A stretch of 64,000 nucleotides of DNA, taken from Candidatus Babeliales bacterium. Lineage in GTDB: Bacteria; Babelota; Babeliae; Babelales; JBFXEV01. Where the stretch lies: assembly GCA_050179755.1 (NCBI GenBank), contig JBFXEV010000001.1, positions 713,994 to 777,993 of the forward strand. The letters are read 5' to 3'. Every line of letters begins with the position of its first letter. Positions within the stretch are counted from its first letter, which is position 1. Below, in pieces: positions 16,694-17,778 of this stretch. A program made the translations under genes and the position numbers. The notes under the pieces were generated by a model that saw only the letters and a program-made list of their open reading frames with translations, was not told where the DNA came from and made no database searches.

Positions 16694-17233
16694 TTATTTG
16701 TAATTGCTTTCAATCAAGGTAAACCCCTCAGTTTCTTCCTTCTCTTTAAGAAACCGTGCCAATTGTTCAAACTTACGCTTTTCTTTGGGGTTTTGTAAGC
16801 GCGATGCTATATCTTGTGCCCAAGCGCTTGCTGTTTTGCCTAAACTGTCTTTAAGGGTATAGTCTACGTGCGTCTTTGTATCTAAGTAGGTAATAACCGA
16901 TTGTAGGCCAAAAAGTGCTGCCATCATAAGAGCAGTTTGCTGCGCAACATTTTGAGCATTCACATTAATGCCTTTTAGGGGAATCAATTCTTTTATAAGC
17001 GATAGTGCTTGCTCTTCAGTAATAATATCAGTGCCAACCGCTTCAAGTACTGCGTGGAGTGGCGTGTTGCCTTTGCCGTCGCGCAATGTTGCTAAATTTT
17101 TTGATTGACTGATTAGCTTACGAGCCTGTGCAACATCTCCTTTATAAAGTGCTTGAAATAACTCAGTTGACCCACGTAGCATGTTTGGCGCGCAGATAAT
17201 GCTTGTGCATATGATTATTGTTTGTAATTTCAT
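16694..17233 (-). CDS. Secreted ankyrin repeat protein
   Basis: Signal peptide; GNTPLHA, QTALMMAA, GKTA. Confidence 0.85.
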   Translation of the reverse strand: MKLQTIIICTSIICAPNMLRGSTELFQALYKGDVAQARKLISQSKNLATLRDGKGNTPLHAVLEAVGTDIITEEQALSLIKELIPLKGINVNAQNVAQQTALMMAALFGLQSVITYLDTKTHVDYTLKDSLGKTASAWAQDIASRLQNPKEKRKFEQLARFLKEKEETEGFTLIESNYK

Positions 17234-17778
17234 TTTTTATCCCCCACTAATACCCAGTCGTCTTCCAGATTCTCCCATTGCGCTAAAATTGTTTTAAGTT
17301 GCGCATTTTTTGCATAGGAAGATGCTTTTTTACCATCTTTTGTAACTGAGAAGGCTCCTTTATCATGCAAAAGAACCGCTACTTTTAAAAGCCCCAATTG
17401 AGTTGCCATAAAAAGAGGCGGCATGCCCGCTTTGGTTGCCTCATTTACCAGTTTAACTGCGTCTGCTTTATCAATCCTTAAAAGGAGCATGGAAAGTACG
17501 TCATAGAGTAATTGTGAGGCTTTTGGCTCGCCATATTTTGCTACCGCTAATTTGTAACCTTGTAAAGCAGCACTAATAAGCGTATTGCCATTATCGCGCG
17601 CGTTCATTATTTCTTGAGCAGTTAATTTGCGATTTTTAGTAAGATCGAGAAGCACTTGGTAAAAGCCTTTTTCAGAGGCTTGAAAGAATTTTTTAACATC
17701 TTCGTTTGAACCTAAAAGGGCAAGGGGTAAGCATAAAAAACTGCTTACGGCGATAGTCTTTAAGATAATGGCTTTCAT
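17230..17778 (-). CDS. Secreted ankyrin-like protein
   Basis: Signal peptide from ATG 17778; ARDNGNTLI, AGMPPLFMA; ATGA overlap with the next gene. Confidence 0.8.
   Translation of the reverse strand: MKAIILKTIAVSSFLCLPLALLGSNEDVKKFFQASEKGFYQVLLDLTKNRKLTAQEIMNARDNGNTLISAALQGYKLAVAKYGEPKASQLLYDVLSMLLLRIDKADAVKLVNEATKAGMPPLFMATQLGLLKVAVLLHDKGAFSVTKDGKKASSYAKNAQLKTILAQWENLEDDWVLVGDKK

Follow-up and report, generated by a model that had tools for sequence, protein, structure and literature searches.

A small lineage-specific family of mini-ankyrin proteins with a recurring acidic-aromatic C-terminal motif in a Babeliales genome

Dependentiae are widespread parasites of protists in which genes for exported ankyrin proteins take up a large part of the genome, and we know of no target for any of these proteins. 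Chromulinavorax destructans encodes 98 ankyrin proteins, 78% of them with signal peptides, which have been proposed to act as secreted host-manipulating factors (PMC6561590, excerpt), and ankyrin repeats are found across the TM6 genomes (PMC4776705). Among better understood effectors, those that find ATG8-family proteins through a short terminal motif, the LC3-interacting region (LIR) or ATG8-interacting motif (AIM) with the consensus [W/F/Y]-x-x-[L/I/V] (PMC4775223, excerpt), are the closest to the locus described here. The AIM of PexRD54, which consists of the last four residues of the protein, binds ATG8CL, and a 10-residue C-terminal peptide suffices for this interaction (PMC4775223, excerpt), and RavZ, a protein of 502 aa (PMC7676224, excerpt), uses both N-terminal and C-terminal LIRs (PMC7676224 and PMC8634866, excerpts). 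In this work, we analyzed two adjacent genes, here denoted A and B, located in a stretch of 64,000 nucleotides from a Candidatus Babeliales bacterium (contig JBFXEV010000001.1, positions 713,994 to 777,993; hereafter the window), which a first-pass annotation had described as encoding coupled, secreted ankyrin proteins with LIR/AIM-like tails, proposed to engage the autophagy machinery of a protist host. The new result is that A, B and a neighbouring paralog are members of one small lineage-specific family, with a recurring tail motif in 8 of its 19 members; the ATG8 reading of this motif is a reasonable but unproven hypothesis on an otherwise ordinary gene class. The principal features, numbered from the first nucleotide of the window, are the following (ORF, open reading frame; pLDDT, predicted local distance difference test):

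17230..17778, minus strand: gene A, an exported-type mini-ankyrin protein of 182 aa with a signal-peptide-like N-terminus, divergent repeats, a capping helix and a short tail (ORF list)
16694..17233, minus strand: gene B, an ankyrin protein of 179 aa, a divergent member of the family of A (ORF list)
15875..16540, minus strand: the paralog, 221 aa, 40% identical to A (E 1.7e-32), whose longer tail is without the motif (ORF list)
17245..17265, minus strand: tail motif of A, E172-D-D-W-V-L-V178, followed by GDKK and the stop codon (read from the codons; hfAIM match; pLDDT <50 from residue 174)
16712..16735, minus strand: tail motif of B, E167-T-E-G-F-T-L-I174, followed by ESNYK and the stop codon (translation; predicted coil; aligns with EGFTII of the metagenome protein P0075)

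In the ORF translations, the C-terminus of A reads ...ENLEDDWVLVGDKK (likewise ...QWENLEDDWVLVGDKK) and that of B reads ...EETEGFTLIESNYK (likewise ...KEKEETEGFTLIESNYK), and the core [W/F/Y]-x-x-[L/I/V] is present as WVLV in A and as FTLI in B. Under the rule used here to call the motif (the core within the last 19 residues, with at least two D/E in the four residues before it), the positive members of the family are A, B and the metagenome proteins P0002, P0005, P0010, P0066, P0075 and P0154, that is, 8 of 19 as against the 0.87 of 19 expected from shuffling the last 19 residues, and in all 8 the motif ends 3-6 residues from the C-terminus. The hfAIM patterns quoted in PMC8634866 (excerpt), X[DE][DE][WFY]..[LIV] and [DE]X[DE][WFY].., divide these proteins: in a scripted comparison A matches the former and B matches neither, whereas both match under the looser rule for acidic residues given above. 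By eye, P0002, P0005 and P0010 fit the quoted patterns; P0075, which has a Phe-type tail with Gly at position -1 as in B, fails them, as do P0066 and P0154 because of His at position +1. We also compared the family consensus, by eye, with SUMO-interaction, kinesin W-acidic, AP-2 WxxF-acidic, gamma-ear, KDEL/KKxx and PTS1 motifs, none of which fits.

By sequence comparison, A, B and the paralog come from a single family within which they have diverged, rather than being unrelated proteins that converged on a motif. In addition to the similarity between A and the paralog, B aligns collinearly with the family profile over residues 12-141 (hhalign probability 96%, E 2.2e-9), a match that is partly generic because both sides are ankyrin-like, and the BLASTP alignment of B with P0075 extends through the tail, where EGFTLI is paired with EGFTII. 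Furthermore, the three proteins share the succession of signal peptide, repeat, long insert, repeat, capping helix and short tail, and this common architecture indicates common descent. The acidic-aromatic tail is accordingly best viewed as an inherited family trait and not as two independent coincidences.

The family seems to be narrow. A single-protein search with A returned A itself and one metagenome protein, P0002 (60% identical), and among 41 related genomes matches were found only in the source genome (G000) and in one genome of the same genus (G001). An order-wide genome search matched 2 of 261 Babeliales genomes at E<=1e-12, where ankyrin-rich genomes may hide further members because at most 11 candidates were scored per genome. 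A profile search of 1.84 billion representatives produced 2610 matches at E<=0.001, mostly to long generic ankyrin proteins; from the 150 matches listed, 16 short proteins that aligned along their length were taken, and a later profile search added P0154. P0020, an 88-aa N-terminal fragment, was left out, as were P0073 and a 290-aa protein of G000 that were taken for tandem duplications of the module, and the resulting 19 members comprise the three proteins of the window, the G001 ortholog of A (P0004) and 15 metagenome proteins, of which the 10 that were looked up are all singletons. Outside the family, B produced only generic ankyrin matches, partial in length and no more than 45% identical, and no ortholog of B was found, a search of 5.8 billion proteins having returned B alone. 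Scans of genome contigs with A and with the neighbouring transaldolase-like gene confirmed no relatives, and none of the 126 pattern matches obtained in metagenome contigs with a narrower family alignment was confirmed. A second metagenome scan, made with the other clade, gave 48 loci, and 0 of 57 ORFs matching the hidden Markov model had a domain match covering at least 100 of the 196 positions; its matches are to generic ankyrin repeats only. In the searches made, the family is thus seen only in the Babeliales genus of the window and in metagenome singletons. The 290-aa protein mentioned above (L019:1132-2004, at about 161,300-162,200 of G000:C1) matches the family profile with E 5.4e-15; in it, as in P0073 (334 aa), the module appears to have been duplicated in tandem. 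The gene adjoining that of the 290-aa protein encodes, by eye, a WD40-like repeat protein of 359 aa.

In a maximum-likelihood tree of 18 members (the fragment P0024 was left out), motif-positive proteins are found on both sides of the midpoint root; the paralog belongs to a well-supported clade of 6, all of them motif-negative, and B lies on a long branch (1.93) with an insecure placement. For the four members with a Trp tail, pairwise identity is lowest in the signal peptide (0.20), rising to 0.45 in the tail, 0.53 in the domain and 0.60 in the last helix; when set against the signal peptide, the tail is thus under clear constraint. P0066 and P0154 have a variable, Gly-rich linker of 15 residues between the last helix and a nearly identical SDLEKDWH[LV]I..KD tail, and such a combination of a variable linker and a conserved end is what would be expected of a short linear motif. 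The tails of the paralog-type members (15875-16540, P0006, P0011-P0014 and P0024) contain a recurring element of their own, approximately F-x-[DA]-F-G and then K-[EG]-[AG]-F-[ST]-G, which could represent another linear motif within the family.

The predicted structures are compatible with an ankyrin body that carries a short terminal extension. B passes the cut-off of the Pfam family Ank_2 (PF12796; 48.3 bits, cut-off 27.3), and A (15.2 bits) and the paralog (23.1 bits) remain under it. The model of A produced weak Foldseek matches, all of those listed being to ankyrin/DARPin chains (best E 4.5e-4, TM score by query <=0.57), and its feature and structure neighbours in the ESM Atlas are ankyrin clusters (TM score 0.56-0.64). 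The ankyrin assignment of the first-pass annotation is reasonably supported, the ankyrin fold of A being a putative one. The AlphaFold2 model of A (pLDDT 78.7) consists of helical repeats, with helices through residue 176 and low confidence at residues 1-23 and 174-182 (pLDDT <50 for 174-182). Trp175, the aromatic residue of the tail motif, is at the end of the modelled helix 159-176; Trp168, which is nearly invariant and located in the better-modelled helix, is probably structural. In the single-sequence AlphaFold2 model of B (pLDDT 65.9), residues 169-179 form a coil and the pLDDT is <50 at 172-179. The low-confidence ends of both models, built from shallow alignments of 4 rows and 1 row, would fit accessible tails, and in neither model is the tail docked on the ankyrin domain. 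A complex prediction for mature A and mature B, addressing pairing through the tails, scored 0.00 and gives no verdict either way. Domains of the RavZ type (an Ulp-like cysteine protease and a domain binding phosphatidylinositol 3-phosphate [PI3P]) were not found in A and B, for which Pfam returned only ankyrin families and Foldseek only ankyrin folds. A search for the ATG8 family itself (PF02991) gave no match in G000 or G001, and as its control gave none either, it carries no information.

The arrangement of the genes and the N-termini of their products bear on how these proteins would be made and exported, for which the following additional features are relevant:

17784..17788, minus strand: Shine-Dalgarno-like AGGAG ahead of A, 5 nt before the ATG (read from the sequence)
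17230..17233, minus strand: ATGA overlap formed by the TGA of A and the ATG of B (sequence)
17710..17778, minus strand: signal-peptide-like N-terminus of A, residues 1-23 (Lys2 and a hydrophobic run, then LLG/SNED; pLDDT <50)
17171..17233, minus strand: signal-peptide-like N-terminus of B, about residues 1-21 (heuristic; pLDDT <50 for residues 1-18)

A, B and the paralog lie on one strand, with a gap of 153 nt between B and the paralog. The longest open frame of A is 17230-17850(-), beginning with a TTG at 17850, and the ATG at 17778 gives the protein of 182 aa; the latter is the likely start because it is preceded by AGGAG. B is translationally coupled to A, given that the stop and start codons overlap as ATGA with a G-rich run, GGGGGA, upstream. 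The ORF list and this overlap agree with the coordinates, the tails and the coupling of A and B described in the first-pass annotation, which was also right that the tail of the paralog is different; it is longer as well. Promoter-like sites in the region 15200-18100 are not commoner than in shuffles, and the 6 terminator-like sites found there represent a marginal excess over the 2.7±1.8 of shuffles, with no single site being informative.

The N-termini of all three proteins show a basic residue followed by a hydrophobic run and were called as signal peptides by eye and with a crude heuristic of our own. This hydrophobic segment is kept in all aligned members of the family, at a pairwise identity of only 0.20-0.21. 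By the same inspection and heuristic, A and B combine a signal-peptide-like N-terminus with ensuing ankyrin repeats in a Babeliales genome and thus belong with the signal-peptide ankyrin proteins of Dependentiae, and the earlier description of A and B as secreted is reasonably supported. The source genome contains two genes with secretin domains (G000:C1:499870-500352 and 504582-505052, in frames of 855 and 866 aa, 4 kb apart), matching the two gspD copies that were reported, together with type II secretion components, for TM6 genomes (PMC4776705). We infer that A and B are exported beyond the periplasm, in which case release would probably proceed by a type II-like route or in vesicles.

The frequency of such tails in the source genome as a whole was assessed using 1443 ORFs that were called crudely (longest ORFs of at least 70 aa, with greedy overlap removal). 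The motif is present in the tails of 29 of these (2.0%), compared with 22.9±4.6 in 200 shuffles; slightly different rules gave 31 tails, and an alternative pattern gave 28. It occurs in 11 of 517 signal-peptide-like ORFs versus 18 of the 926 others, and in only 1 of 82 ankyrin genes, which is B, A being missing from this count because it fails the Pfam threshold. One adjacent motif-positive pair was seen versus 0.58 expected. Tails with an hfAIM pattern number 7, with A included and B not, as against 8.6 expected from the per-residue rate, and other carriers of motif tails include RNase HII and a GNAT acetyltransferase. The enrichment of acidic-LIR tails in the secretome raised in the first-pass annotation is thus not seen, the genomic frequency being at the level of chance; with no enrichment genome-wide, this genome lacks an LIR programme spanning the secretome, and any role of the motif is specific to the family of A and B. 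A signal-peptide-like ankyrin protein of 285 aa encoded elsewhere in the genome (L102; G000:C1:933557-934414, minus strand; Ank_2 49.4 bits) carries EGREEWQPLV; it was not included in the motif count because the core ends 12 residues before the ...SKK C-terminus, outside the tail window.

Taken together, these data can be accommodated in a scheme in which A, B and the paralog form a tandem array, with A and B first, that would encode Sec-exported mini-ankyrin proteins. A single message would serve for A and B, the latter being coupled to the former, and after Sec export a type II-like pathway or vesicles would probably bring about their release. Each protein would comprise a small ankyrin binding module preceded by a signal peptide and followed by a capping helix and a tail that is short and flexible. 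Where the tail is of the acidic-aromatic type, it would be a short linear docking motif that tethers the ankyrin module to a partner outside the bacterium, most likely a host protein. We infer that the tail is under selection and that there is a partner for it to bind; that it is a selected docking motif of any kind is a tentative proposal, which in our judgement falls a little short of an even chance. A narrower version of this proposal, according to which the tails are true LIR/AIM sequences that bind the LIR-docking site of host ATG8, to block, divert or exploit xenophagy or ATG8-decorated phagosomes, we consider rather unlikely, even with the core and upstream acidic residues present in A, B and six homologues, the fit of A, P0002, P0005 and P0010 to the quoted hfAIM patterns, the inheritance of the motif at a fixed distance from the C-terminus in terminal tails of low pLDDT, and the precedents of PexRD54 (PMC4775223, excerpt) and RavZ (PMC7676224 and PMC8634866, excerpts). 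Several observations weigh against the docking proposal, its ATG8 version included. The motif is absent from 11 of the 19 family members, among them all 7 paralog-type proteins, which have longer tails with the different recurring element described above. The only same-genus ortholog of A, P0004 of G001, which is syntenic with A and has an HD-domain gene and a small secreted gene alongside, ends in ...EWENVEGDSINIP..., with Ser at the position of the Trp of A; Ser is found at this position in P0007 as well, P0038 has FGEF, and P0082 has nothing comparable at its tail. Conservation of the motif in orthologs, by which the first-pass annotation had set store, is therefore partial: it holds for the six positive homologues and breaks down in P0004, P0007, P0038, P0082 and the 7 paralog-type members. 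With the Trp lost in the sister species, the tail trait must be dispensable. Moreover, the count of 8 in 19 overstates the number of independent events because the members are kin, and of the at least 4 motif changes that the tree needs, well-supported branches force only 2. Conservation of the tail does not exceed that of the folded domain, and for B it cannot be judged because of the long branch and the lack of an ortholog. With alignments of 4 rows and 1 row, low pLDDT is weak evidence of tail disorder; the signal-peptide calls come from a crude heuristic; and crossing of the outer membrane or arrival in the host cytosol is hypothetical, what is seen being signal-peptide-like N-termini and two secretin genes.

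Alternatively, the tail would have no specific function and would be an acidic and hydrophobic extension, inherited in part of the family, that matches the degenerate four-residue consensus by composition, the match in B being a coincidence. The genomic background does not differ from shuffles, one adjacent positive pair was seen where 0.58 are expected, shuffling the tails within their own composition yields the motif in 14% of cases for A and 10% for B, the members that lack the motif include the closest sequenced species, and the domain is at least as well conserved as the tail. Set against these points are the 0.87 positives expected where 8 are observed, the distance of 3-6 residues to the C-terminus that is held even with a variable linker inserted, a tail identity (0.45) far above that of the signal peptide (0.20) in the same proteins, and the presence of the motif in both deep branches of the tree; we regard a functionless tail as rather doubtful, if somewhat likelier than ATG8 binding. 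A role on the bacterial side, in which the tail would direct sorting or export (across the outer membrane or to vesicles), contact a partner in the periplasm or at the surface, or cap the ankyrin groove within the same molecule, would account for a fixed distance from the C-terminus, which is typical of terminal signals, and for a family in which all members are of Sec type with no obvious second signal, encoded in a genome with two secretins. However, export presumably takes place without the motif in the paralog-type members and in the sister-species ortholog, AlphaFold2 does not dock the tail on the domain, and we know of no Sec-dependent export signal of this form, and such a role seems highly improbable. 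Returning to the docking proposal, host ATG8 is the best-fitting known reader of the Trp-type tail of A, and as one candidate only it must be considered improbable, because the consensus is a degenerate one, the aromatic residue is gone from the sister species, the Phe tails of B and P0075 are weaker matches and access to the cytosol along a Sec/type II-like route is unproven. In the same direction point the failure of B, P0075, P0066 and P0154 to match either quoted hfAIM pattern, the absence of a B ortholog, the lack of enrichment in signal-peptide-like or ankyrin genes, the hfAIM tails at no more than the expected number, and the occurrence of the same motif on RNase HII and the GNAT acetyltransferase.

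The source genome consists of one contig of 1,525,295 bases with ~39% G+C, and its EF-Tu is 83% identical to that of a Babeliales metagenome-assembled genome and at most 73% identical to those of the other 79 loci kept. Ank_2 has 152 matches in this genome (150 listed), in about 82 crude ORFs, and dozens of the 150 listed matches fall in an ankyrin gene island of 17 kb located outside the window, at about 1,396,000-1,413,000 of G000:C1. Within the window, the ankyrin array is flanked by genes for small proteins (122-168 aa) with signal-peptide-like N-termini, 15343-15849(-), 17904-18380(+) and 19584-19952(+), none of which has a significant match to a Pfam family; a sub-threshold match to Phage_tube_2 was obtained for 15343-15849 (16.1 vs 27 bits). 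The product of 17904-18380 shows no detectable relatedness to those of 15343-15849 and 19584-19952, and a syntenic relative of its gene is located beside the A ortholog in G001. The gene 13826-15190(-) encodes a polytopic membrane protein of 454 aa without a Pfam match at E<=0.1.

Being short, conserved and terminal, the motif offers an experimental handle, in that a 20-residue peptide could be used for an ATG8 test or as bait for partners, and if ATG8 binding fails, the family would still be a compact model of ankyrin-effector docking. The full proposition, namely that this is a Babeliales-specific family of Sec-exported mini-ankyrin proteins with genuine ATG8-binding tails, delivered without type III or type IV injection and gained and lost fast between sister species, strikes us as unlikely to hold in its entirety. 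If true, it would identify the first autophagy-targeting effector family in the phylum Dependentiae and would imply that LIR mimicry as a means of subverting autophagy, as seen in Legionella and in oomycetes, had a further origin in this deep-branching group; rapid gain and loss would be expected if the tail tracks host ATG8 or host range. The first-pass annotation knew of no such description for this lineage, and our search of the open-access literature by titles and abstracts likewise found no prior description of such motifs in Dependentiae; the string 'autophag' is absent from the texts of PMC6561590 and PMC4776705.

Among the described systems, PexRD54 of Phytophthora infestans resembles A and B in being a secreted effector with a helical-repeat body and an acidic Trp-x-x-aliphatic C-terminal motif (PMC4775223, excerpt). 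It differs in its oomycete RXLR-WY fold and in that its motif, which is necessary and sufficient for ATG8 binding, is formed by the very last four residues, whereas A and B have an ankyrin body, 3-6 further residues, mostly polar or basic, come after the motif, and ATG8 binding is putative. The likeness to RavZ of Legionella pneumophila lies in an amoeba-adapted intracellular bacterium whose effector finds ATG8-family proteins through terminal LIRs (PMC7676224 and PMC8634866, excerpts). However, RavZ is a Dot/Icm-injected cysteine protease of 502 aa with a PI3P-binding domain, unlike A and B, which would be mature ankyrin modules of ~160 aa without a catalytic domain and with Sec-type signal peptides. 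The signal-peptide ankyrin proteins of other Dependentiae belong to the same phylum and order and share with A and B the ankyrin repeats behind a Sec-type signal and a presumed role in host manipulation; the family described here differs from them as a narrow sub-family with a divergent module that is mostly under the Pfam thresholds and with a recurring C-terminal motif.

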